Of a stretch of DNA of 64,000 nt, positions 3,315 to 48,342 are shown one piece after another. A model generated the notes under the pieces. The model searched no databases. It was given only the letters and a program-made list of their open reading frames with translations, and was not told the origin of the DNA. This stretch comes from Escherichia coli (GTDB lineage Bacteria; Pseudomonadota; Gammaproteobacteria; Enterobacterales; Enterobacteriaceae). The stretch is taken from assembly GCF_048403405.1 (NCBI RefSeq), contig NZ_CP183129.1; one strand, 5' to 3'. A program made the position numbers and the translations under genes. Positions within the stretch are counted from its first letter, which is position 1, and each line of letters starts with the position of its first letter.

Positions 3315-4004
3315 TTAGCGCCCCGCCCGTTCACGGCTGATTCTGGCCAGCCATTCTGAAATCAACAGGGAGATCATCGCCAGTGCAATAGAAATAATGC
3401 ACAGTCTCGCCGCGCCACTTTCCCCGCCGGGGGTCTGGATCAGGGTATACATGGCAGAAGGAATGGTTCGCGTTTCACCAGGAATGTTCGACACAAAGGT
3501 GATGGTTGCACCAAACTCACCGAGAGAACGAGCAAAAGCCAGTACCGTACCAACAATAATGCCCGGTAAGGTCAGCGGTAACGTGATAGTAAAGAAAACG
3601 CGCCAGCGCCCGGCACCCAGTGTTCTTGCGGCCTGTTCCAGTTTGATATCAACACCTTCCAGCGCCAGACGAATTGCCCGCACCATCAGCGGAAACGACA
3701 TGACGGCGGCAGCGAGAACCGCGCCGCGCCAGCTAAAGGCGAAGGTAATGCCAAACCAGTCATACAGACGTTCACCGATAAATCCGCGCCGTCCCATCGA
3801 AACTAATAATAAGTAACCGACGACCACGGGCGGTAACACCAGCGGTAGATGCAGTACGCTGTCGAGCAGAGCTTTGCCCGGAAACGTGCAACGCACCAGT
3901 AACCAGGCAAAAAAGATCCCAAACGGCAGGCTAAACAGCACAGCCAGGGAAGAAACTTTCAGGCTTAGTAAAACCGCCTGCCATTCTGGATCGGTCAGTA
4001 TCAT
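3315..4004 (-). CDS. modB: Molybdate ABC transporter permease
   Basis: 229-aa polytopic membrane ORF between modA and modC; recognised as ModB. Confidence 0.95.
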
Positions 4005-4777
4005 TACTTGGTTGTAAATCCGTAACGTTTAAAGATTTCCGCAGCCTGCGGCCCCTTCAGATAATCATAAAATGCTTTCACTGTCGCATTGTTATGCCCT
4101 TCCACAACAGCAACCGGATATTCCACTTTTTTATGTGAATCTTCCGGGAAGGTGGCAACCACTTTTACCCCTTTGCTGGCAACTGCGTCAGAACCGTAAA
4201 CAATGCCCAACGGCGCTTCATTGCGTTCGACCAACGCCAGCGCGCCACGAACATCTTCCGCCGGAGCCAGTTTCGGGGAGAGCGTATCCCATGCGCCCAG
4301 TTTTTGCAGTGCTTCTTTTGCATAAATGCCAGCGGGAACATGTTCCGGATCGCCAACCGCCAGGCGACCGCCATTCAGCAGTGAAGTCCAATTGGTTTTG
4401 CTGTCGATGGTGAAATCTTTCTGCTCGCTGGCTTTCGGTGCTACAACGACCAGGCTATTGCCGAGCAGTGTCTGACGTGTAGCTGTATCGATCGCTTTTT
4501 TATCAACCGCATAATCCATCCATTTCTGATCGGCAGAAATAAACAGATCCGCAGGCGCACCCGCTTCAATCTGACGGGCCAAAGTAGATGACGAAGCGAA
4601 AGAAGAAACCACATCCACGCCTTTCTCTTTTTTATACTGCGTAGCAATGTCCTGCATTGCGTTAGTCAGTGATGCGGCGGCGAACACCGTGATTTTCCCT
4701 TCATCTGCCAGTGCATTGCCAGCAACAGCGAAAGAGAGTGCCGCCCCGGCAAACAAGTTCAACCATTTACGAGCCAT
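4004..4777 (-). CDS. modA: Molybdate-binding periplasmic protein
   Basis: 257 aa with N-terminal signal peptide (MARKWLNLFAGAALSFAVAGNALA); recognised as ModA. Confidence 0.95.
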   Translation of the reverse strand: MARKWLNLFAGAALSFAVAGNALADEGKITVFAAASLTNAMQDIATQYKKEKGVDVVSSFASSSTLARQIEAGAPADLFISADQKWMDYAVDKKAIDTATRQTLLGNSLVVVAPKASEQKDFTIDSKTNWTSLLNGGRLAVGDPEHVPAGIYAKEALQKLGAWDTLSPKLAPAEDVRGALALVERNEAPLGIVYGSDAVASKGVKVVATFPEDSHKKVEYPVAVVEGHNNATVKAFYDYLKGPQAAEIFKRYGFTTK

Positions 4778-18165: not shown

Positions 18166-18241
18166 TGGTGGGTCGTGCAGGATTCGAACCTGCGACCAAT
18201 TGATTAAAAGTCAACTGCTCTACCAACTGAGCTAACGACCC
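18166..18241 (-). tRNA. tRNA-Lys (anticodon UUU)
   Basis: 76-nt match to E. coli tRNA-Lys read on the minus strand (GGGTCGTTAGCTCAGTTGGTAGAGC...CACCA); encoded CCA. Confidence 0.95.
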
Positions 18242-18244
18242 GAG

Positions 18245-18320
18245 TGGTGGGTGATGACGGGATCGAACCGCCGACCCCCTCCTTGTAAGGGAGGTGCTCT
18301 CCCAGCTGAGCTAATCACCC
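18245..18320 (-). tRNA. tRNA-Val (anticodon UAC)
   Basis: 76-nt match to E. coli tRNA-Val (GGGTGATTAGCTCAGCTGGGAGAGC...); 3-nt spacer from the neighbouring tRNA-Lys. Confidence 0.95.
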
Positions 18321-18371
18321 GATACTGCGCTGGATACTACAAACTACTTCCACCGAACCCACCGTAATTAG

Positions 18372-18447
18372 TGGTGGGTCGTGCAGGATTCGAACCTGCG
18401 ACCAATTGATTAAAAGTCAACTGCTCTACCAACTGAGCTAACGACCC
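18372..18447 (-). tRNA. tRNA-Lys (anticodon UUU)
   Basis: Identical copy of the tRNA-Lys sequence. Confidence 0.95.
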
Positions 18448-18449
18448 GG

Positions 18450-18525
18450 TGGTGGGTGATGACGGGATCGAACCGCCGACCCCCTCCTTGTAAGGGAGGT
18501 GCTCTCCCAGCTGAGCTAATCACCC
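18450..18525 (-). tRNA. tRNA-Val (anticodon UAC)
   Basis: Identical copy of the tRNA-Val sequence; 2-nt spacer. Confidence 0.95.
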
Positions 18526-18560
18526 GATACTACGCTGGATACTACAACTAACTAGGTTAG

Positions 18561-18636
18561 TGGTGGGTCGTGCAGGATTCGAACCTGCGACCAATTGATT
18601 AAAAGTCAACTGCTCTACCAACTGAGCTAACGACCC
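18561..18636 (-). tRNA. lysT: tRNA-Lys (anticodon UUU)
   Basis: Promoter-proximal copy of tRNA-Lys in the array. Confidence 0.95.
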
Positions 18637-28537: not shown

Positions 28538-29482
28538 ATGAGTCCTGATAATATCAGTTCTGCTGTCAATCGCTTCTCAGGTTGGCCATCTAATGATCCT
28601 CTAAAAACAGATAAAGAATCAATGACATCACCCATGACTGTGCAGGTAATAAAGATGATTGCCGCCATCCTTGACCCACATCGGATAGTCGTTGGAATCG
28701 ATACACTTTATACAACGCAGCGCGAAACATTTACCTCAGAGAGTCAACAGCTCATTGAATCAGCATTGCAAACACTTCATGTGATGAATTTAAATAACCT
28801 GGAAACAAATCTCGATGAGGAAGGTCACTATCTGGCTTTTGGATATAACGTTGACACTCCTGACAGAATAACCGTTTCTGCTTATAATGAAAAAAAGCCT
28901 GGCTGCTATGGCCAATGTCTTTTAATACAGGATGACGAAACAGACTTATTTAACCTGATAAAAGTTAAAATTTTTGAAGCCAGGCATAATTATGTCGCTC
29001 AATTGATGAGCGATCCGGAATTTATGTTCAAATTTAGTTATAGCGCTCAACAAAATAGATTAGAACCTCATCTTCTGGTTCCCACTTATTTCCCTCTAAA
29101 AACAAACGAACCGGTTACGCAAGAGGATGTACTGTTACTTTATCGTTTCTTTAAAATGGATGGTGATTTTAATATATTAACATCAGATGAATACATGAGT
29201 ATCATGACACCTCTGATGAAGTGTGAGCGCAGCATCCACGACCACAACAGGTATGTGACGGGCAAAGATACCCTTCTTCTGGACTATCCTCCTTCTGGTA
29301 ACCAGATATATTTCCATATTTTTCCTGACGAATCAGCAACACTAGTCCTTTATTTTTCAAACAATGACATTGAATGTTTCGTCTTTGAAAGAGATATTCC
29401 GAGCCAGTATCGCTTTTTCAAAATGTTTACCAATCTGGCACTGGTTATTGATCAGTTAACCGATGCCAATCAAATACTTTAA
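28538..29482 (+). CDS. Hypothetical protein, 314 aa, no recognisable domain; in an AT-rich block
   Basis: Long ORF in a visibly AT-rich region; polar Ser/Pro/Asn-rich N-terminus (MSPDNISSAVNRFSGWPSNDP), no signal peptide or TM segment seen; plausible purine-rich RBS-like stretch upstream (aatgaggttgctgctATG). Confidence 0.6.
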   Translation: MSPDNISSAVNRFSGWPSNDPLKTDKESMTSPMTVQVIKMIAAILDPHRIVVGIDTLYTTQRETFTSESQQLIESALQTLHVMNLNNLETNLDEEGHYLAFGYNVDTPDRITVSAYNEKKPGCYGQCLLIQDDETDLFNLIKVKIFEARHNYVAQLMSDPEFMFKFSYSAQQNRLEPHLLVPTYFPLKTNEPVTQEDVLLLYRFFKMDGDFNILTSDEYMSIMTPLMKCERSIHDHNRYVTGKDTLLLDYPPSGNQIYFHIFPDESATLVLYFSNNDIECFVFERDIPSQYRFFKMFTNLALVIDQLTDANQIL

Positions 29483-29562
29483 TTTTTATATATTCCCTGT
29501 GGCAAATATTGCTAAACAATGCCCGGGGATTAATTTTTATTACTCACGGAAAGATTTAAATA

Positions 29563-29985
29563 ATGATCCCATCTCAAATCTCTTTCAACACCCTTCCTGT
29601 CAATGCAACATACGCTTCAGAGACAACAGTTGACACACAAAAATTCTCTGACATCCTCTACTCAGCGGGGTGTTCCCTAAAGGATCTGGCTTATTTGAGC
29701 AGATGTCTGGCATCAATACATCCGACTATCGCCAAAAACATTTATGAAACAGAAAATCTCAGCGATCAAAAATTACTACATATTGATTGCCGTAGTACAA
29801 ATGAAATCAAGATAAATATCTTTTTTGGTCAACAACGAGAAGGATTAATTGAAATTAGTTCTGACACAGTCATTTTTTCGATACTGTCTTCATTGATTGA
29901 CTCCACCATTTCTAAATTTCAACACCAAAACCCCGTTAACGGTTCTGTAAATCCTGACCTATTGTATGAGGATTATACTGATTAA
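29563..29985 (+). CDS. Hypothetical protein, 140 aa, acidic, no recognisable domain
   Basis: ORF 80 bp downstream of the 314-aa ORF on the same strand; by my count about 17 Asp+Glu against about 9 Lys+Arg; same AT-rich context. Confidence 0.5.
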   Translation: MIPSQISFNTLPVNATYASETTVDTQKFSDILYSAGCSLKDLAYLSRCLASIHPTIAKNIYETENLSDQKLLHIDCRSTNEIKINIFFGQQREGLIEISSDTVIFSILSSLIDSTISKFQHQNPVNGSVNPDLLYEDYTD

Positions 29986-30532
29986 ATCCCTCCTGTCGCG
30001 AAAAATGGCCTGCGTTATTGCCAGACGTAATAAAACTTTTGATTAACGTTTCTCGTACTGGTAGCACCTTCATGTACTTTTCTTTTTTACGAAAAATCAA
30101 AAGAGCTAACAAAGGTCATAATTCGCATGAATCATTAATTATTTGTTATTTTCAACATTATTTTTACATTAAGCAGAGATGAATTGCAGTGAAATTCGAC
30201 TTAACTTTTATGAAATGCATTTACTCATGGCTAAAGCCACGTCACAAAAATGCAAATTAGAAGTAGATCACAAATATCTCAATACATCAAATCAAGTTAA
30301 TTTTAAAAATTTAATATTCATGACATTAGTTGACATAACACACTGAATTATAATGAGAATTTGAAAACACACTTTAAACAATCATTTCCCGAAAGACATT
30401 TTGAAAATAGATCAATTGCAACATTACGGTCAGATAAAGACACTCCTGTGATATTAAACCTGTGCCGTTATGAACGGCCATAAATACGACGTGTGTAACT
30501 TATTTTACTCTCTGTCTTACAAAGGATTACCC

Positions 30533-30982
30533 ATGAAGAAAGCAACACTTGTGATTGGCGTTATTGGCGCGGACTGCCATGCAGTAGGCAATAAAGTTCT
30601 GGACCGCGTTTTTAGCAACCATGGCTTCAGAGTCATTAATCTGGGCGTAATGGTCAGCCAGGACGAATATATTGATGCTGCCATTGAAACTGGTGCTGAC
30701 GCGATTGTCGTCTCCTCTATCTATGGGCATGGCGATATCGATTGTCTGGGCATGCGCGAACGCTGCATTGAGCGTGGGCTGGGTAACATCCTGCTCTATG
30801 TGGGCGGTAACCTGGTGGTCGGAAAACATGACTTCGCTGACGTGGAAACCAAGTTCAAAGAGATGGGATTTGATCGCGTCTTTGCCCCAAGTCATGACTT
30901 AGAAGATGTTTGTCAGCTGATGGCCCACGATATCAACCAACGTCATGACGTTGATACTCGCATTCTTGAAGAGGCAATCTGA
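30533..30982 (+). CDS. mamA: Glutamate mutase sigma (S) subunit, B12-binding component
   Basis: Start set at [21 protein letters not shown] (good RBS aaaggattacccATG); carries the cobalamin His-ligand motif DxHxxG (DCHAVG); close resemblance to clostridial GlmS/MutS as I recall them. Confidence 0.9.
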
Positions 30983-35078: not shown

Positions 35079-36449
35079 ATGGCTCGTTCTTTTAAAGTCT
35101 TATCGCCAACGGCAATCCTCGGGTATGGATTCCCGGAAGAGAGCTTCCGTAAAGCGATGGCAGAATCGCCCGATCTGATCGCCGTTGATGCAGGCTCTTC
35201 CGATCCTGGCCCCCACTACCTCGGGGCGGGCAAACCGTTTACCGATCGCGCAGGGGTCAAGCGCGATCTGCGCTATATGATCACCGCAGGCGTGCAAAAT
35301 AATATACCGGTGGTGATCGGAACGGCTGGCGGTTCTGGTGCCGCACCACACCTGGAGTGGTGCCGAGAAATAATTCATGAGATTGCCCAGGAAGAGCACC
35401 TCTCGTTCTCAATGGCGCTGATCCCGGCAGACGTTGACAAAGCCATCGTCCACCAGGCGCTGGATAACGGCAAAATCACGGCGCTGGAGTTTGTCCCGCC
35501 GTTAACCCACGACGCGATTGACGAAAGTACGTATATCGTTGCGCAAATGGGCATCGAACCCTTCCAGCGGGCGCTGAAAGAAGGCGCGCAAGTGGTGCTG
35601 GGCGGGCGCGCTTACGACCCGGCCTGCTTTGCTGCGCTTCCGATCATGCAAGGCTTTGATGAAGGTCTGGCGCTGCATTGTGGGAAAATCCTTGAATGCG
35701 CGGCAATCGCCGCAACGCCCGGCTCAGGCTCTGACTGTGCGATGGGCATCATTGATGACAACGGCTTTACGCTGAAGACATTTAATCCGAAGCGTAAATT
35801 TACCGAAACGTCAGCGGCTGCACACACACTGTATGAGAAATCCGATCCCTACTTCCTGCCTGGACCTGGCGGCGTGTTGAACCTGAAAGGCTGCACATTT
35901 AAAGCGGTCAATGACAGCGAAGTGTACGTCAGCGGTTCTAAGCATGAAGAAACGCCGTATGCCCTGAAACTGGAAGGTGCGCGACGAGTGGGCTTCCGCT
36001 GTCTGACCATCGCAGGAACGCGCGACCCGATCATGATCGCCGGGATCGATAAAATCATCGATGAAGTCAAAACCAGCGTTTCGCGTAACCTGTCGCTCGA
36101 CGATGACAGCATTCGCATCAATTTCCACCTGTACGGCAAAAACGGGGTGATGGGAGACCATGAACCGATGCAAACTGCCGGGCATGAGCTGGGGATTGTC
36201 CTTGATGTAGTTGCACCGACCCAGGAAATTGCCAACAGCGTTTGCTCGCTGGTGCGCTCTACCATGCTGCACTACGGCTATGAAAACCGCATCGCTACCG
36301 CAGGTAATCTGGCGTTCCCGTTCTCCCCTTCTGATATCCAGGGCGGGCCGGTATACGAATTTTCCATATATCACCTGATTGAAGCCAACGACGCTCTGCG
36401 TTTTGATTTCCATATTGAACAGGTGACGCCAGAAGGAGTTCAGGCATGA
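35079..36449 (+). CDS. Uncharacterised protein, probably DUF1446 / AtuA-like family
   Basis: 456-aa ORF starting 4 nt after the MAL stop; family assignment is from memory of AtuA-like N-terminal features and is not verified. Confidence 0.5.
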   Translation: MARSFKVLSPTAILGYGFPEESFRKAMAESPDLIAVDAGSSDPGPHYLGAGKPFTDRAGVKRDLRYMITAGVQNNIPVVIGTAGGSGAAPHLEWCREIIHEIAQEEHLSFSMALIPADVDKAIVHQALDNGKITALEFVPPLTHDAIDESTYIVAQMGIEPFQRALKEGAQVVLGGRAYDPACFAALPIMQGFDEGLALHCGKILECAAIAATPGSGSDCAMGIIDDNGFTLKTFNPKRKFTETSAAAHTLYEKSDPYFLPGPGGVLNLKGCTFKAVNDSEVYVSGSKHEETPYALKLEGARRVGFRCLTIAGTRDPIMIAGIDKIIDEVKTSVSRNLSLDDDSIRINFHLYGKNGVMGDHEPMQTAGHELGIVLDVVAPTQEIANSVCSLVRSTMLHYGYENRIATAGNLAFPFSPSDIQGGPVYEFSIYHLIEANDALRFDFHIEQVTPEGVQA

Positions 36450-36763
36450 AACAGTCAATTGTCTCACTGGCGCAAGTCATTCGTTCGAAAAATGCCGGAC
36501 CTTACGAACTGGTTTTAGATATTTTATTTAAAACCAAAGAAAACTATGAGCGTGTCAAATCATCAGGGCAATTAACCCCAGAACTGATCGCGCGCTTATA
36601 TCATGTTGAACCTGACTTTATTCATCGTATTGTCTGGTTTGATCCTTCTAACGCAGTAAAAATCGTCATGCCACGAGATATTATCTCCGGGAATGTAGGT
36701 GACAATGATGTCTATGGTGCACAGCAACATGCACCTTTATTAAATATGAGTTTCGATTTGTAA
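36446..36763 (+). CDS. Small uncharacterised protein, possibly DUF4387, coupled to the upstream ORF
   Basis: 105-aa ORF whose ATG overlaps the upstream stop (ATGA); family name is a tentative recollection. Confidence 0.45.
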   Translation: MKQSIVSLAQVIRSKNAGPYELVLDILFKTKENYERVKSSGQLTPELIARLYHVEPDFIHRIVWFDPSNAVKIVMPRDIISGNVGDNDVYGAQQHAPLLNMSFDL

Positions 36764-39973: not shown

Positions 39974-40576
39974 ATGGAAGCGCGAATTTCAACTGAACGG
40001 CATGTGCAGCGCCAGCAGAAATTGAAGGAACAGGTCGATACGCGCGTCGCGGCGGCGATAGAGAAAAAAGGGATTTTGATTGTTTTCACCGGCAATGGCA
40101 AAGGGAAATCCACTGCCGCGTTTGGTACTGTGACGCGCGCGGTGGGTCATGGCAAAACGGTGGGGGTTGCGCAGTACATCAAGGGGCAATGGGACAACGG
40201 CGAATACAACCTTCTCCAGCCGCTGGGGGTTGAGTTTCATATTATGGGAACCGGTTTTACCTGGGAGACACAGAACCGGCAAGCGGATATCGACGCGGCG
40301 AAAGAGGTCTGGTCGGAAAGCAAACGGATGCTGGCTGACAAGCGTTACGACTTAGTGGTGCTTGATGAGCTGACCTATATGCTGGCTTACCATTATCTGG
40401 ACACCGAAGAAGTGATCGCTTCTCTGCAAAACCGCCCGGCACAACAAAGTGTCATTGTCACCGGACGCGGTTGCCACAGTCAGATATTAAAAATGGCGGA
40501 TACGGTCAGCGAAATCCGCCCCGTCAAACATGCTTTTGATAACGGCATTCAGGCGCAGCCGGGTATCGACTGGTAA
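39974..40576 (+). CDS. Cob(I)yrinic acid a,c-diamide / cob(I)alamin adenosyltransferase (CobA/BtuR family)
   Basis: 200 aa; P-loop GNGKGKST; near-colinear with E. coli BtuR as I recall it (IIVFTGNGKGKTTAAFG...GFTWETQNR...VVLDELTYM...VKHAFD). Confidence 0.88.
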   Translation: MEARISTERHVQRQQKLKEQVDTRVAAAIEKKGILIVFTGNGKGKSTAAFGTVTRAVGHGKTVGVAQYIKGQWDNGEYNLLQPLGVEFHIMGTGFTWETQNRQADIDAAKEVWSESKRMLADKRYDLVVLDELTYMLAYHYLDTEEVIASLQNRPAQQSVIVTGRGCHSQILKMADTVSEIRPVKHAFDNGIQAQPGIDW

Positions 40577-40579
40577 TAA

Positions 40580-40606
40580 CTGCGCCTGGCATCCCGCCAG
40601 GCGCAG
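40580..40606. terminator. Bidirectional terminator between the adenosyltransferase gene and the convergent LysR gene
   Basis: Perfect 11-bp inverted repeat ctgcgcctggc / gccaggcgcag with a 5-nt loop, flanked by A/T; abuts both stop codons. Confidence 0.7.
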
Positions 40607-40609
40607 GTT

Positions 40610-41515
40610 TTACATCTCCTGCGGTACGACCGATTTCGCCAGCAACCATTCACGAAATTGCTGCAAGTGCGGCGAGTCAGACTTCTCTTCCTGCCACGTC
40701 ATAATAAAACGATTACCGGTACGAATAGGCACATCACAGGGAATCACCATATCGCCACTATCCAAATCATGTTGAATAGCGAACCGTGGTAACAGCGCCA
40801 CGCCGAGATTAGAGCGCACGGCGGCAATCAGCATTGAAAGCAAATCGAAACGTGGTCCGTTATTGACCAGCGGACTGCTAACGCCAGATAAAGCAAACCA
40901 CTCTTCCCAGCCAGTAATACGGGTGCTTTGATGCAGAAGTGGTAACTCAGTAAGCAGTTCTGCCACTGACAGTTTTTGATCGGACATTGCAAGCAAACTG
41001 CCGCTGCATACCGGCAAAATCTCCTCATCAAAGAGATATTCTACTTCCGCCCAGGGCGCGCAAAAATTTTCGCGCATAATGACAGCATCGTACTCCCGAT
41101 TAAGAAAATCGCCGTTATTAGCTAAAGAATGAATATTAACAATAATATCGGGATGTAACTTTGTGAATTCATGTAAATTTGGGATTAACCAGTGGGTACT
41201 AAAAGTAGGATTAACGGCAAGTTCAATAACCTGAACCGTAGGCTGCCAGGTCATAATGGTATTGGTATCGCGTTCCAGCTTATTTAATGTTTCTTTTACT
41301 ATCCCCAGGTAATACTTCCCTGCATCATTAAGAAAAATACGTTTTTTAGAGTGTGAAAATAACGGAGTATGTAAAAATTCCTCCAGCGCACTCACTTGTC
41401 TGAATACAGCACTTTGGGTTAACGCTAACTCCTCTGCCGCTCTGGTATAACTTTCATGACGTGCGACGACCTCAAAAGTCACCAGCAGCTCCGTTTTAGG
41501 TATTTTTCCTCGCAT
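40610..41515 (-). CDS. LysR-type transcriptional regulator
   Basis: 301 aa; N-terminal HTH (ESYTRAAEELALTQSAVFRQVSALEE) and LysR substrate-binding domain. Confidence 0.88.
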   Translation of the reverse strand: MRGKIPKTELLVTFEVVARHESYTRAAEELALTQSAVFRQVSALEEFLHTPLFSHSKKRIFLNDAGKYYLGIVKETLNKLERDTNTIMTWQPTVQVIELAVNPTFSTHWLIPNLHEFTKLHPDIIVNIHSLANNGDFLNREYDAVIMRENFCAPWAEVEYLFDEEILPVCSGSLLAMSDQKLSVAELLTELPLLHQSTRITGWEEWFALSGVSSPLVNNGPRFDLLSMLIAAVRSNLGVALLPRFAIQHDLDSGDMVIPCDVPIRTGNRFIMTWQEEKSDSPHLQQFREWLLAKSVVPQEM

Positions 41516-41554
41516 AATGCCGTCCCTTAAAAATAGTTTAAACCATCAAAAATA

Positions 41555-41576
41555 CATTACTTATTACGAAGTAATG
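41555..41576 (-). promoter_or_regulatory. Dyad-symmetric site upstream of the LysR gene (candidate autoregulatory operator)
   Basis: Perfect inverted repeat cattactt-attacg-aagtaatg centred about 50 bp upstream of the LysR start codon, in AT-rich DNA. Confidence 0.4.
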
Positions 41577-42080
41577 GTAACCAAAGCAGCAATAAATAAT
41601 TTATAAGAATCATGATTGACATTTATAACCCAGTAAGCCTGGCGTGACAAATATCTTAATCAGATAATAATAATCCGAAAAGCACAGCGCCTTTCGAATT
41701 ATCCGGAATCACATTAAGTGAAAATTATTAAATTGATATCATTTATCATATCTGTGGATATTATGATAAACAATCAACAAAGATTTTATTTTTGATTTAT
41801 AGCATATCCCTCTAAGAATTTTTGCGATGCTGCAATATCCGGGTAAAGACCCGATCCTGGCTGACAAATGGCACGACTTGACGATAAGCGGTGAACATCG
41901 CTTTTGTTGATTTACTTAACGCTACGGTCAAACGCTGGGAAGCCAGTGCATCAGGTAACGATTCGAAATTCGCCGTCGTTCTTATTCGTGGCTTGCGGTC
42001 GGTTGCGGCAATCCACAGTGGCTGTGGTCATGCAGTCAAGCCAGCGGTCAGATTTCGACCGTGGTTAACATTTAAGGCAT

Positions 42081-42179
42081 AAAAAAGGCCATCATACGAT
42101 GGCCAACCATGTCGAAACCGACAGCCCTTCGCCATTCCTGTAGAGGGAAGCGGCGAGGGCTATTTCTTATTACAGATAT
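42081..42179 (-). ncRNA. sdhX: Probable SdhX (RybD)-type sRNA from the sucD 3' UTR, with intrinsic terminator
   Basis: Directly downstream of the sucD stop; ends in hairpin ggccatcgtatgatggcc followed by a T run (read on the minus strand); K-12 has an sRNA at this position; the 5' boundary is undefined because it is a processing product. Confidence 0.55.
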
Positions 42180-43049
42180 TTATTTCAGAACAGTTTTCAG
42201 TGCTTCACCGATATCCGCCAGGCTGCGAACGGTTTTCACGCCTGCGGCTTCCAGAGCAGCGAATTTCTCATCCGCAGTCCCTTTTCCACCGGCAATGATC
42301 GCACCCGCGTGGCCCATACGTTTGCCTTTCGGCGCAGTCACACCAGCGATGTAACCCACAACAGGCTTGGTAACGTGCTCTTTGATGTACGCAGCCGCTT
42401 CTTCTTCAGCGCTACCGCCGATCTCACCGATCATCACGATCGCTTCGGTCTGCGGATCTTTTTCGAACATTTCGAGGATGTCGATAAAGTTAGAGCCAGG
42501 GATCGGGTCGCCGCCGATACCAACACAGGTCGACTGACCGAAACCGTAATCCGTGGTCTGTTTCACCGCTTCATAGGTCAGTGTACCGGAACGGGAAACG
42601 ATACCCACTTTACCCGGTTTGTGAATGTGACCAGGCTGGATACCGATTTTGCATTCACCCGGAGTGATAACGCCTGGGCAGTTCGGGCCGATCATGCGAA
42701 CGCCCGCTTCATCCAGTTTCACCTTCACGGTCAGCATATCCAGCGTCGGGATGCCTTCAGTGATGGTGATAATCAGTTTGATGCCTGCATCAATAGCTTC
42801 CAGAATGGAGTCTTTGCAGAACGGTGCTGGTACGTAGATAACAGAAGCGGTAGCGCCAGTAGCAGCAACAGCTTCACGCACGGTGTTGAACACCGGCAGG
42901 CCGAGGTGGGTGGTGCCGCCTTTACCTGGGGTTACGCCGCCAACCATTTTAGTGCCGTATGCAATGGCCTGTTCTGAGTGGAAAGTCCCCTGGCTACCGG
43001 TAAAGCCCTGGCAGATAACCTTGGTGTTTTTATCAATTAAAATGGACAT
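42180..43049 (-). CDS. sucD: Succinyl-CoA synthetase alpha subunit
   Basis: 289 aa, [24 protein letters not shown]...; recognised as SucD. Confidence 0.97.
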
Positions 43050-44215
43050 TATTTCCCCTCCACTGCGGCAACAACCTGCTGAGCTGCATCCGTCAGACCT
43101 TTTGCTGCAATAATATTCAGGCCGCTGTCAGCCAGTTTCTTCGCGCCGAGTTCGGCGTTGTTACCTTCCAGACGTACCACGACCGGTACGTTAACACCCA
43201 CTTCCGCTACCGCGCCGATGATACCGTCAGCGATCAGGTCGCAACGAACGATACCGCCGAAGATGTTAACCAGAACGGCTTTCACTTTGTCGTCAGAGAG
43301 GATGATTTTGAACGCTTCGGTTACACGTTCTTTGGTTGCGCCGCCGCCAACGTCAAGGAAGTTAGCTGGTTCGCCGCCGTGCAGTTTAACGATGTCCATC
43401 GTACCCATCGCCAGACCTGCGCCGTTAACCATACAACCGATGTTACCGTCCAGCGCAACGTAGTTCAGTTCCCACTGTGCAGCCTGTGCTTCACGTGGAT
43501 CTTCCTGCGACTGGTCACGCATTTCGCGCAGATCAGGCTGGCGGAACAGTGCGTTGCCATCAGCGCCCAGTTTGCCGTCGAGGCAAATCAGATCGCCCTG
43601 TTTGGTGATGACCAGCGGGTTGATTTCGATCAGCGCCAGGTCGCGCTCCAGGAAAATGGTCGCCAGGCCCATGAAGATTTTGGTGAACTGCTGAACCAGT
43701 TTACCTTCCAGACCCAGTTTGAACGCCAGCTCGCGTCCCTGATACGGCATCGGGCCAGTCAGCGGATCAAGCGCAACTTTGTGGATCAGGTGCGGAGTTT
43801 CTTCCGCCACTTTTTCGATTTCCACGCCGCCTTCGGTGGAGGCCATAAAGACCACACGACGGGAACTACGGTCAACAACGGCACCGAGATACAGCTCTTT
43901 AGCGATATCGGTCGCTGCTTCAACCAGAATCTGGTTAACCGGTTGGCCATTGGCATCTGTTTGATACGTTACCAGACGCTTGCCCAGCCAGTTTTCTGCA
44001 AAAGCACGGATGTCTTCTTTGCTGTTTACAACTTTCACACCGCCCGCTTTACCGCGGCCACCAGCGTGAACCTGACATTTCACTACCCACGGACCGGCAC
44101 CGATTTTTGAAGCGGCTTCTTCTGCTTCGCGCGGAGTAGTACAGGCATAACCCACCGGTGCTGGTAAGCCATAGCGGGCAAAAAGTTGTTTTGCCTGATA
44201 TTCATGTAAGTTCAT
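43049..44215 (-). CDS. sucC: Succinyl-CoA synthetase beta subunit
   Basis: 388 aa, [18 protein letters not shown]...; 1-nt overlap with sucD. Confidence 0.97.
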
Positions 44216-44255
44216 GTGTTCTGTCCATCCTTCAGTAATCGTTATCTTTTAAACC

Positions 44256-44286
44256 GTAGACCGACACCCTATCCACGTCGGTCTAC
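44256..44286 (-). other. Intercistronic stem-loop in the sucB-sucC spacer
   Basis: Perfect 10-bp inverted repeat gtagaccgac / gtcggtctac with an 11-nt loop, inside the 93-bp sucB-sucC spacer. Confidence 0.5.
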
Positions 44287-44308
44287 AGTGCAGGTGAAGC
44301 TTAAACTA

Positions 44309-45526
44309 CTACACGTCCAGCAGCAGACGCGTCGGATCTTCCAGCAACTCTTTGATCGTTACCAGGAAGCCCACGGATTCGCGACCATCGATCAGACGGT
44401 GATCGTAGGACAGCGCCAGGTACATCATCGGCAGGATCTCAACCTGACCATTCACCGCCATCGGACGATCTTTGATAGCGTGCATACCCAGAATTGCGCT
44501 CTGCGGCGGGTTGATGATCGGCGTAGACATCAGGGAACCGAACACACCACCGTTGGTGATGGTGAAGTTACCACCGGTCAGATCTTCAACCGTCAGCTTG
44601 CCGTCACGGCCTTTAACTGCCAGCTCTTTGATTTTCTTCTCGATGTCTGCCATGCCTAGGGTATCGACATCACGCAGTACCGGCGTCACCAGGCCGCGCG
44701 GCGTAGAAACCGCCATGCTGACGTCGAAATAGTTGTGGTAAACCACATCATCGCCGTCGATAGACGCGTTCACTTCCGGGTAACGTTTCAGGGCTTCAAC
44801 CACCGCTTTCACGTAGAAGGACATAAAGCCCAGACGAATACCGTGACGTTTTTCAAACGCTTCACCGTACTGCTTACGCAGATCCATAATCGGCTTCATG
44901 TTGACTTCGTTGAACGTGGTCAGCATAGCGGTGGAGTTTTTCGCTTCCAGCAGACGCTCTGCCACACGCTTACGCAGGCGAGTCATCGGGACACGTTTTT
45001 CGCTACGTGCAGCCAGAGCCGGTTGCGCCGCCGGAGCAGCCGCTGCCGGAGCAGACTCTTTCGCCGGGGCTTTCGCCAGATGTTTTTCCACATCTTCACG
45101 AGTCAGACGACCACCCACACCGGTGCCTTTAATGGCGCTGGCGTCGAGGTTGTGTTCAGCCAGCAGGCGACGGATCGCCGGGCTTAACGCATCGTTGTTT
45201 TGCTCTTCCAGAGACGCCTGCTGGCGTTGCGCCGGAGTGGACGCTTTCTCTTCAGATTTGGCGCTGGTTTCTTTACCGGCGCTGTTGCCTTCACGCAGGC
45301 GACCAAGGATCTGACGAGACGTTACCGTTGTACCTTCATCTTCCAGAACCGCATCCAGAATGCCGTCTGCTGATGCCGGTACTTCCAGTACCACTTTGTC
45401 AGTTTCGATTTCTACCAGCACTTCATCACGTACGACTGCGTCGCCGGGTTTTTTATGCCAGGTTGCGACGGTGGCATCGGCTACGGATTCAGGCAGGTCA
45501 GGGACCAGAATATCTACGCTACTCAT
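44309..45526 (-). CDS. sucB: Dihydrolipoyllysine-residue succinyltransferase (E2o)
   Basis: 405 aa; lipoyl domain, Ala/Pro-rich linker, catalytic domain; recognised as SucB. Confidence 0.97.
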
Positions 45527-45540
45527 TGTGTATCCTTTAT

Positions 45541-48342
45541 TTATTCGACGTTCAGCGCGTCATTAACCAGATCTTGTTGCTGTTTCTGGTGAACGGACAT
45601 ATACCCTACCGCCGGAGAGGCGGAGGCCGGGCGGCCTGCATAACGCAGAGAAGCCCCAAACGGAATCACTTCACGGAAATGATGCTGGCTGCAGTACCAT
45701 GCGCCCTGGTTGAGCGGCTCTTCCTGGCACCAGACAAAATCCTTGACGTGAGCAAACTGCTGCAACACTTCCTGCATCGCTTTATGCGGGAACGGGTAGA
45801 GTTGCTCGATACGCACAATGGCGACATCGTGTTGATTGTTCTTACGGCGTTGTTCCAACAGGTCGTAATAAACCTTACCAGAACACATCACTACGCGCTT
45901 CACACCCTTCGGATCAAGCTCGTCGATTTCACCAATGGCAGGCAGGAAGGTGCCGTTCGCCAGTTCTTCGAGGCTGGAAACCGCCAGCGGATGACGCAGC
46001 AGGGATTTCGGCGACATCACGACCAGCGGACGACGCATCCCGCGCAGCGCCTGACGACGCAGCATGTGGTAAACCTGTGCCGGGGTAGACGGTACGCACA
46101 CCTGCATGTTTTGCTCAGCACAAAGTTGCAGATAACGTTCCAGACGCGCGGAGGAGTGCTCCGGCCCCTGCCCTTCGTAACCGTGCGGCAGCAACATCAC
46201 CAGACCACACATCCGGCCCCATTTCTGTTCGCCAGAGGAGATGAACTGGTCGATAACCACCTGAGCACCGTTAGCGAAGTCACCGAACTGTGCTTCCCAG
46301 ATAGTCAGAGTGCGTGGTTCTGCGGTGGCATAACCGTATTCAAACGCCAGCACGGCTTCTTCTGACAGTACGGAGTCCCAGACACGAAACGCGCCCTGAC
46401 CGTTATGGATGTGTTGCAGCGGCGTGTAAGTGGAACCGTTAGACTGGTTGTGGATCACCGCGTGGCGGTGGAAGAAGGTACCGCGACCGGAGTCTTCACC
46501 CGACAGGCGAACCGGAATGCCTTCGTCAACCAGCGTGGCGTAAGCGAGGTTTTCCGCGCCGCCCCAGTCGAACAGTTTCTCACCAGCTGCCATCGCCTGG
46601 CGATCGCCATAAATCTTGGCAACGCGAGACTGCATTTCAACTGCTTCCGGCACCGTGCTGATGCGTTTAGCCAGTTCCTGCAGGCGCTTCATCTCAACTT
46701 TGTTCGGGTACTCTTCGTCCCATTCGTGGTTGAGGTACGGCGACCAGGTGAAAGAGTGCATGTTCATCGGACGCCACTCTGCCACTACGCAATCGCCAGC
46801 ATCCAGCGCATCGCGGTACAGGTTAACCATCTCGGTGGCATCTTCGAGCGTCGCCACTTTTTCTTGCTCCAGCTTGTCAGCGTAGATTTTGCGCGGCGTC
46901 GGATGTTTTTTGATTTTCTGATACATCAGCGGCTGGGTTGCGCTCGGCTCGTCGGCTTCGTTGTGGCCATGACGGCGGTAGCACACCAGGTCGATGAAGA
47001 CATCACGTTTAAAGGTGTTACGGAAATCGAGCGCCAGACGGGTCACAAAGGCAACGGCTTCCGGATCATCCGCGTTAACGTGGAAAATCGGTGCCTGAAC
47101 CATCTTACCGATATCAGTACAGTACGGCGTCGAACGGGCATCCAGCGGGTTAGAGGTGGTGAAGCCAACCTGGTTGTTGATAACGATACGTACCGTACCG
47201 CCAACTTCATAGCCACGCGCTTTCGACATGTTCAGGGTTTCCTGAACCACGCCCTGCCCGGTCACTGCGGCGTCACCGTGGATGGTAATTGGCAGCACTT
47301 TGTTGCTGCTCGGCTCATCAAGTCTGTCCAGACGGGCACGAACAGAACCGATAACGACCGGGCTTACAATCTCAAGGTGAGACGGGTTAAACGCCAGCGC
47401 CAGGTGTACCAGGCCGCCATCGGTCTGGAAGTCAGACGAGAAGCCCATGTGGTATTTCACGTCACCCGTGCCGAGGTGTTCTTTATGTTTACCGGCAAAC
47501 TCGTCGAACAAGTCTTGCGGTTTTTTACCCAGCACGTTCACCAGCACGTTCAGACGACCACGGTGCGCCATCCCAAGAACCACTTCGCGGGTGCCGCTGT
47601 TGCCAGCGTGGCGGATCATCTCTTTAAGCATCGGGATTAACGCGTCACCGCCTTCCAGCGAGAAGCGTTTTGCACCAGGGAATTTTGCACCGAGGTAACG
47701 TTCAAGGCCTTCAGCGGCGGTCAGTTCGCTTAAGAAGCGTTTTTTCTCTTCGCTATTGAAAGTCGCGCGACCAGACTCGATACGCTGTTGGATCCAGCGT
47801 TTTTCTTCGGTGCTGGTAATATGCATATACTCGGCGCCAATCGGGCCGCAGTAGGTTTGCTTGAGTGCTTCCAGCAGTTCGCCGAGTTTCATGGTTTCTT
47901 TGCCGCTGGCAAATGAACCGACGTTGAAGGTCTCCTGGAAGTCTGCTTCGGTCAGATCGTGGAAAGACGGATCCAGATCGGCCACTTTATCTTGCTGCCA
48001 CAGTCCCAGCGGATCGAGATTCGCATGCTGGTGACCACGGAAGCGGTATGCGTTAATGAGCTGCAGGACTTTAACCTGCTTCACATTGGTGTCAGGGTCG
48101 GAGATCGTTGAAGAGTAACGTGAAGCGTCTTTCGCCAGGCGGCGGAAATATTCACGCGTTTGAGAGTGGAATTGATCCGGTTTGACTCCCGTACCAGGTA
48201 ACTGCTGGAACGTCGAACGCCAGTTAGCGTCAACCGAGTCAGGATCGGTTAAGAAGTCTTCATAGAGCTGTTCTATCCAGCTCTGGTTTGCGCCAGAGAG
48301 GTAAGAAGAGTCCAACCAGGCTTTCAAAGCGCTGTTCTGCAT
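45541..48342 (-). CDS. sucA: 2-Oxoglutarate dehydrogenase E1 component
   Basis: 933 aa, [30 protein letters not shown]...; recognised as SucA. Confidence 0.97.

Follow-up and report, generated by a model that had tools for sequence, protein, structure and literature searches.

The island and its regulator gene

The DNA analysed here, called the window, is a 64-kb stretch of an Escherichia coli chromosome, in which a 14-kb island lies between cydAB (before 27736) and sucABCD (42180-48342, minus strand), in place of mngR-mngA-mngB. Homology to E. coli K-12 picks up again at position 42073. The island carries a methylaspartate gene cluster, for the B12-dependent fermentation of glutamate, and, at its end, the gene of a LysR-type regulator (LTTR), lysR, whose site of action is the subject of this work. 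The original prediction drew attention to a perfect inverted repeat next to lysR. The comparison of related loci argues instead for a conserved box at the distant promoter of glmS, where the regulator probably acts. The island consists of the following genes.

Plus strand: two hypothetical genes, glmS (start at 30533), glmL, glmE, the methylaspartate ammonia-lyase gene (mal), an AtuA-family gene, a DUF4387 gene, the gene of a GltP-like symporter, the gene of the class I fumarase FumD, and cobO (39974-40576)
Minus strand: lysR, the last gene of the island, after cobO
40610-41515, minus strand: extent of lysR, encoding an LTTR of 301 aa of the GcvA/DsdC/AmpR-like subgroup (open reading frame, Pfam, NCBIfam, closest structure), with its ATG start codon at 41515

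The products of the two hypothetical genes (314 and 140 aa) match no family in Pfam or NCBIfam, so that lysR is the only recognisable regulator gene of the island, as originally proposed. The distance of 11 kb between this gene and the start of the operon was also correctly given, since glmS starts at 30533. The two hypothetical genes (28538-29985) lie between cydA and glmS and are absent from the Salmonella layout, where the glmS promoter region directly follows cydA.

The regulator gene is present in 1127 of 5426 complete E. coli genomes, O157:H7 included (at least 80% of it is covered in 1119), and the methylaspartate cluster in about 21% of them. The glmS promoter region, found in 1135 E. 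coli genomes, co-occurs with lysR (1127).

The product of lysR is a genuine LTTR and belongs to the GcvA/DsdC/AmpR subgroup. Its 301 residues include the Pfam domains HTH_1 (PF00126, residues 9-67, E 9.8e-17) and LysR_substrate (PF03466, residues 96-293, E 5.8e-28), which bears out the earlier family assignment; RefSeq names the gene 'LysR substrate-binding domain-containing protein'. The best NCBIfam model is that of the GcvA subfamily (NF008352 / PRK11139), followed by those of the choline-sulfate regulator and of DsdC, and the closest solved structure is that of GcvA (8y6u; phmmer E 9e-43, with similarity over the full length). The protein is not a GcvA equivalog, however: its score of 221.8 bits lies below the curated cutoff of 288. 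The existence of the regulator has already been noted in the literature, as Kronen and Berg (2015, PMC4682846, Fig 5) drew the gene as 'LTTR' beside CobA and FumD (ECs0757) in E. coli O157:H7. Beyond that article, the literature search gave no paper on the regulator.

A conserved box at the glmS promoter

The following elements lie upstream of glmS.

30389-30418, plus strand: conserved upstream element CCGAAAGACATTTTGAAAATAGATCAATTG, proposed as a candidate regulator site (comparative conservation and position weight matrix, PWM)
30416-30444, plus strand: predicted glmS promoter, with a -35 hexamer TTGCAA (30416-30421), a 17-bp spacer and a weak -10 hexamer GACACT (30439-30444), read from the sequence only

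The core of the box is a partial dyad of the T-N11-A type, TTGA-N7-TCAA (30401-30415), which abuts the -35 hexamer. The transcription start site (TSS) of glmS is predicted at about 30451, which gives a leader of about 82 nt and places the centre of the box at about -43.

The upstream block, cAAGa-N4-yTGA-N7-TCAATTG, followed after 17 bp by a -10-like (G/C)ACA(C/T)T, was first aligned in Escherichia, Pseudescherichia, Yersinia and Yokenella. It was then predicted for, and found in, the glmS contexts of Citrobacter koseri, Salmonella, Budvicia and Morganella (four out of four). It is thus present in eight genera, and it is sharply bounded, the flanking sequence being unconserved. The promoter hexamers keep their positions and their 17-bp spacing across genera (-35: TTGCAA/TTGCCT/TTGTAT/TTGCAG; -10: GACACT/CACACT/CACATT/CATATT).

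The box is not limited to glmS. It also precedes fumD in loci which have fumD-cobO as a unit of its own (Yersinia, Budvicia and the loci L036 and L047), and lies in the divergent region between lysR and btuC of Yokenella (PbtuC). Sequence comparison reveals a conserved TGA-N7-TCA core which matches the T-N11-A spacing of LTTR sites and recurs at PfumD and PbtuC.

A 20-bp PWM built from the box sites of the glmS promoters gives a single strong match in the window, with a score of 26.9 at 30399-30418, the next best match scoring 13.9. Over 1.12 Mb of related loci, scores of at least 16 are found only at promoters of the cluster, bar one site in a coding region of Morganella psychrotolerans (L044/L045). 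Box-like sites were also sought upstream of lysR (best score 4.7), gltP, fumD and hyp314 in the window, and in the sumT-lysR and pocR-lysR regions of other genera; none exceeds the shuffle background. Moderate off-target matches occur only in three tandem tRNA-Lys genes at 18197-18621 (AGTTGACTTTTAATCAATTG; these genes were identified by eye).

Further upstream, the glmS promoter is preceded by CRP-like sites, noted in the window (at about 30280-30300), in L050 and L049 and in the Yersinia loci. The site of Yokenella is perfect (TGTGATTGAAATCACA), that of Yersinia reads TATGA-N6-TCACA, and that of E. coli is weaker (TTAGAAGTAGATCACA). These sequences suggest a catabolite control besides the box.

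Orthologues and gene order

The orthologue scan, made with one genome per species, returned 56 loci. Relatives of the regulator, with 57-99% identity, are encoded in 55 of them, and the protein of the last one (L057) is a paralogue with 27% identity. The orthologues of the 55 loci are almost always linked to methylaspartate/B12 genes, three loci (L002, L035, L054) being uninformative. Homologues annotated GcvA in Leeia and Pseudogulbenkiania (44-45% identity) were considered as deeper orthologues and rejected, since their genomic contexts are unrelated. The near-constant linkage, together with the unrelated contexts of these more distant homologues, shows that the orthologous group is a cluster-specific LTTR of Enterobacterales. 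The mapping of the island proteins onto the regulator loci gave the following gene orders.

36 loci (Escherichia, Citrobacter, Salmonella, Klebsiella, Enterobacter, Lelliottia, Pluralibacter, Buttiauxella, Pseudescherichia): lysR convergent, as in E. coli
5 loci (Yersinia): lysR-fumD-cobO in one direction; sumT-pduX and then glmSLE-mal-atuA-DUF4387-gltP in the opposite direction, from about 450 bp upstream of lysR
2 loci (Yokenella and a related Enterobacter-labelled locus): lysR divergent to btuC-btuD-btuB-btuF-glmSLE-mal
9 loci (Morganella, Budvicia and two metagenome-assembled genomes): lysR after cobU-cobS-cobC-cobT

The convergent order is therefore not universal. Divergent placement of the regulator gene and its target operon is typical of the LTTR family, but not obligatory. 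It is seen neither in the window nor in the 36 related convergent loci; lysR is divergent to sumT-pduX in Yersinia and to btuC...glmS in Yokenella. In Yersinia, glmS lies behind sumT-pduX on the same strand and has its own promoter.

The clusters of Escherichia sp. E1V33 and E. whittamii (L003, L004) and of the Pseudescherichia group (L032-L034) have no cobO, and their lysR is directly convergent with fumD; L003 and L004 also have no gene for the GltP-like transporter. A PocR/AraC-like regulator gene is found upstream of lysR in Citrobacter, Salmonella and Klebsiella loci (L012, 7923-9595; L010, 8758-9645; L021, 8913-9617). In Citrobacter, a uroporphyrinogen-III methyltransferase gene (sumT) is divergent from lysR. 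E. coli lost, or never had, sumT and the pocR-like gene, and no remnant of either was detected by tblastn in the window at 41516-42072. No cobalamin riboswitch was found at the Rfam gathering threshold near sumT, btuC or lysR in the related loci.

The AtuA-family and DUF4387 genes (35079-36763 in the window) always lie beside mal-glmE across genera. According to Kronen and Berg (PMC4682846), the fate of citramalate is unknown, and the constant co-location of the pair with mal-glmE makes it the obvious candidate for the missing step.

The dyad upstream of lysR

The inverted repeat of the original prediction is found exactly as described, with perfect 8-bp arms.

41555-41576, either strand: perfect dyad CATTACTT-N6-AAGTAATG, 40-61 nt upstream of the lysR ATG, in the predicted 5' leader of lysR; function unsupported

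This dyad is real, yet weakly unusual. The chance test considered perfect inverted repeats with arms of at least 8 bp and spacers of 3-15 bp in dinucleotide shuffles. Such repeats occur in 15-19% of the shuffles of the 557-bp or 315-bp region upstream of lysR, and in 3% of those of the first 100 bp. The whole window contains 25 of them.

In the aligned lysR upstream regions, the dyad is found in Escherichia only. E. coli 111, L002 and L004 have both arms unaltered, the spacer being changed in the last two, and the dyads of L003 and L054 each have one mismatch and one G.T pair. The conservation within Escherichia is uninformative, because the divergence there is too low: the mean column identity of the region is 94%, and the dyad is no better kept than its flanks. 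In Citrobacter, Salmonella, Klebsiella and Enterobacter, the sequence at the aligned position is unrelated, although the regulators of these genera are 83-88% identical overall to that of the island and identical over residues 1-41.

The dyad is also missing from part of the E. coli genomes: the upstream region which bears it is present in only about 835-848 of them, and about 270 of the roughly 1120 genomes with lysR are without it. In a second layout of the island, that of these 270 or so genomes, lysR lies beside an rtcB-family gene, followed by mngB, and has a wholly different upstream region (L067, E. coli AR_0372, 3957-4545; hits H85-H89). The homology between this variant and the window ends 18 bp upstream of the ATG, and the variant has no dyad, while the matched stretch, from the 3' end of cobO through lysR, is 98.4% identical.

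The search for the same half-sites in the other intergenic regions of the island, proposed earlier as a check, gave nothing beyond chance frequency. The arm CATTACTT, with at most one mismatch, has 62 matches in the window against 48 ± 7 expected, only isolated copies lie in other intergenic regions, and no second dyad with at most three mismatches exists in the 64 kb.

There is about an even chance that the dyad is a functionless, fortuitous or neutral palindrome in horizontally acquired, AT-rich DNA (27-29% GC). The abundance of such repeats in the shuffles and in the window agrees with this explanation, as do the restriction of the dyad to one lineage, its dispensability in other lysR-bearing genomes, the lack of recurrences and the lack of a thermodynamic signal (see below). 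A perfect 8+8 symmetry so near to a start codon, rare in the shuffles of the first 100 bp, speaks against it; the intact arms in several Escherichia lineages do so too, though at an identity which makes them uninformative. Most likely, the dyad is a palindrome particular to one lineage and of little or no function, and the comparison indicates that it is not the conserved recognition site of the regulator.

Which factor acts at the glmS promoter

The island LTTR is probably an activator dedicated to the cluster, which would act in trans at the glmS promoter through the conserved box. From a gene 11 kb away, it would bind the element of about 30 bp with the core TTGA-N7-TCAA, beside the -35 hexamer of a promoter which, with its weak -10 hexamer, may depend on an activator. 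A tetramer bound at about -43 could recruit the RNA polymerase, and glmS-glmL-glmE-mal-atuA-DUF4387-gltP-fumD-cobO would be switched on when a metabolite of the pathway is bound. We infer the binding of the LTTR to the box, activation rather than repression, the effector, and the positions of the promoter and of the TSS. The target was considered unclear in the original prediction, which listed the distant mutase promoter among several options; the presence of the box in eight genera and its recurrence at other promoters of the cluster make the mutase (glmS) promoter the most likely one.

As to the effector, one can only guess. Methylaspartate or mesaconate is a better candidate than glutamate, which is always abundant, because GcvA and DsdC, the closest named relatives, answer to amino acids and because the cluster of E. 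coli O157:H7 was not induced by glutamate, whether cobalamins were present or not (Kronen and Berg 2015, PMC4682846). Indeed, no condition for the expression of the cluster in this strain was found in that study.

Several points weigh against an action of the LTTR at the box. The link between the two is one of co-occurrence. Only the right half of the box (ATCAATTG), which overlaps the -35 hexamer, does not vary; the left half changes from genus to genus (TTGA, CTGA, TTAC, TTCA), and the symmetry is good only in Escherichia, Citrobacter, Salmonella and the Pseudescherichia group. The high-affinity site of an LTTR is classically centred at about -65, versus about -43 for the glmS box, upstream of which no clear second site, of the recognition-binding-site (RBS) type, was found. 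Autoregulation is common among LTTRs; no box lies near lysR except in Yokenella, so that autoregulation is left unexplained. The promoter and TSS positions are predictions. Finally, the protein which binds the box could be a regulator whose gene lies elsewhere.

In the last case, the box would be the site of another factor, for example an anaerobic or catabolite regulator of global reach, and the LTTR would have some other target. This is rather unlikely. The overlap of the invariant part with the -35 hexamer and the variability of the left half would fit such a factor, as would the CRP-like sites further upstream, and the connection of the box to the LTTR is drawn from sequence. However, the spacing of the core, TGA-N7-TCA, is one base longer than the TGA-N6-TCA of FNR and CRP, which were rejected for this reason. 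IHF and Fur are poor matches by eye, and a sigma54 promoter at PfumD was discarded since GG is absent at -24 and the GG/GC pattern is not seen. In addition, the LTTR is the sole regulator linked to the cluster in every genus, the PocR/AraC-like gene being found in some Citrobacter, Salmonella and Klebsiella loci only. The confinement of the box to cluster promoters, with the one exception in M. psychrotolerans, and its position in the lysR divergent region of Yokenella also point to the LTTR.

The lysR promoter and leader

The remaining explanations give the dyad a role and depend on its position relative to the lysR promoter.

41622-41650, minus strand: best sigma70-like lysR promoter, with a -35 hexamer TTGTCA (41650-41645), a 17-bp spacer and a -10 hexamer TATAAA (41627-41622), from a reading of the sequence

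This promoter is kept in all Escherichia loci, among them E. coli 111, L002, L003 and L004. It was missed by the consensus promoter scan, which accepts only -10 hexamers ending in T. The predicted TSS at about 41615 gives a leader of about 100 nt and places the dyad at about +40 to +61.

It is improbable that the dyad is the regulator's own operator, either for the repression of lysR or as its primary site. The perfect symmetry so close to the lysR start and the intact arms in three Escherichia loci speak in favour of this role, as does the autoregulation usual in the family, an example being CodR, which binds its own promoter (PMC12533582). At PfumD of Yersinia and Budvicia, a dyad with a loose likeness to it (TTACTTATTAAC-TAATAAG) precedes the box by about 24 bp. 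The likeness, judged on CTTATTAAC-TAATAAG upstream of PfumD in Yersinia, was rejected, since the spacing differs by 4 bp and the shared 8-mer has a chance p of about 0.14 (hand estimate). The proposal that the dyad is an autoregulatory or target site is not borne out, as the dyad is missing in four genera with identical residues 1-41 and in the rtcB-type variant of E. coli. Furthermore, it is no better kept than its flanks, it has imperfect arms in L003 and L054, its half-sites are at chance frequency and no second dyad exists. It also differs from the conserved box of the cluster. With 8-bp arms and a 6-bp spacer it is an even-length dyad of 22 bp, whose arm centres are 14 bp apart, and not of the T-N11-A type (13-15 bp). 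Its position, downstream of the best lysR promoter, is a further objection.

A role of the dyad as RNA, in which a small hairpin and a U-run (UAUUUUUG) would form a weak attenuator or a stability element keeping the regulator low, is about as improbable. In its favour, the dyad lies downstream of the best promoter and is followed by a T-run, changed spacers lengthen its stem in L002 (to 11 pairs) and in L004, both have a U6 tail, and the changes of L003 and L054 include G.U-compatible ones. Against it, the hairpin of the window has little stability (-6.2 kcal/mol, z -0.65), the leader taken as a whole shows no unusual degree of structure (z -0.11), RNAalifold predicts no consensus pairs for the Escherichia and Citrobacter-type leaders, and the lysR leader has no match in Rfam. 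A leader peptide, encoded by an overlapping Leu-rich open reading frame of 21 codons (41557-41622) which ends inside the dyad, was rejected since its first ATG overlaps the -10 hexamer and the reading frame is not conserved (in L002, the in-frame ATG-initiated reading stops after 6 codons, by hand).

Hairpins and sequence on either side of lysR

Three further features border lysR.

40580-40606, either strand: GC-rich hairpin, terminator-like on both strands, with an 11-bp stem including 9 GC pairs
41669-41703, minus strand: strand-asymmetric 15-bp hairpin with an A/U-rich tail, directly upstream of the lysR promoter (folding)
41742-41770, either strand: second perfect inverted repeat, TTTATCATA-N11-TATGATAAA, 227-255 bp upstream of lysR

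The first hairpin lies between the stop codons of cobO and lysR, which are convergent. Its folding energy is -28.1 kcal/mol (z -6.3) on the plus strand and -27.3 kcal/mol (z -5.1) on the minus strand. The terminator scan lists it with its tail on the plus strand (GUUUUACAUC), but not with that on the minus strand (UUAUUACC). The convergence is as originally described, and the hairpin is strong. As regards a bidirectional terminator, termination both ways is only plausible, because the U-tracts are short on both sides (GUUUUA on the cobO side; UUAUUA, which is poor, on the lysR side).

The hairpin upstream of the lysR promoter has a folding energy of -24.3 kcal/mol (z -5.4) on the minus strand, versus -12.4 kcal/mol on the plus strand. 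It is kept in L002 at -26.7 kcal/mol, where a G.U pair of the window is replaced by C-G. It looks like a terminator which would insulate lysR from upstream transcription. The second inverted repeat is kept with one change in the Escherichia loci.

Between this hairpin and the SdhX-type terminator of sucD (42087-42104) lie about 370 bp (41704-42072) of island-specific, non-coding-looking sequence, conserved among the Escherichia loci. An extended -10-like TGcTATAAA is present at about 41798-41806 on the minus strand. The region could encode a small RNA of about 125 nt; it has no match in Rfam. Esr41 was considered as a small RNA upstream of lysR and rejected, since it belongs to OI-43, elsewhere in the genome.

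Significance

The cluster is carried by a fifth of E. coli, O157:H7 included, and by many other enteric pathogens. A defined and testable candidate box for its single conserved regulator is a handle on when enteric bacteria use this silent pathway. It is conceivable, though a long shot, that a B12-dependent glutamate/mesaconate pathway which is normally silent is turned on by the regulator and the box together, and that this switch answers to a C5-dicarboxylate or an amino acid from the gut or the host (methylaspartate, mesaconate or a related isomer of itaconate) and not to glutamate. If true, this would account for the lack of success in inducing the cluster under laboratory conditions. A biosensor for methylaspartate or mesaconate could also be built on the regulator. 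The dyad at 41555-41576 is itself probably unimportant.

Comparison with known LysR-type regulators

Classical catabolic LTTR promoters include those bound by BenM and CatM, whose sites have the sequence ATAC-N7-GTAT. The glmS promoter shares with them half-sites of 4 bp that are 7 bp apart, a T-N11-A box beside a weak promoter and a probable induction by an intermediate of the pathway. It differs in that the box is centred at about -43 and abuts the -35 hexamer, instead of lying at about -65, and no clear second site was found. The gene of the E. coli island regulator is convergent and 11 kb away, and not divergent.

CodR, a choline-sensing LTTR of the GcvA type from Pseudomonas aeruginosa, belongs to the same subgroup as the island regulator. 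It is effector-bound and autoregulated, and its reported motif consists of two 5-bp elements with 7 bp between them (PMC12533582), a spacing which recalls that of the glmS box. The two regulators differ in their effector and regulon, and the lysR of the E. coli island shows no evident autoregulatory site.

The 'LTTR' of Kronen and Berg (2015, PMC4682846) is the same gene as lysR; their article does not include an analysis of its binding sites, target or effector. The closest relative of known structure is GcvA (8y6u). Like GcvA and the GcvA/DsdC/AmpR subgroup, to which it is similar over its full length, the island regulator has a winged helix-turn-helix and a two-lobed effector domain, and its subgroup relatives are sensors of amino acids or small amines. 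It differs from GcvA in being tied to methylaspartate/B12 genes and not to gcvTHP.

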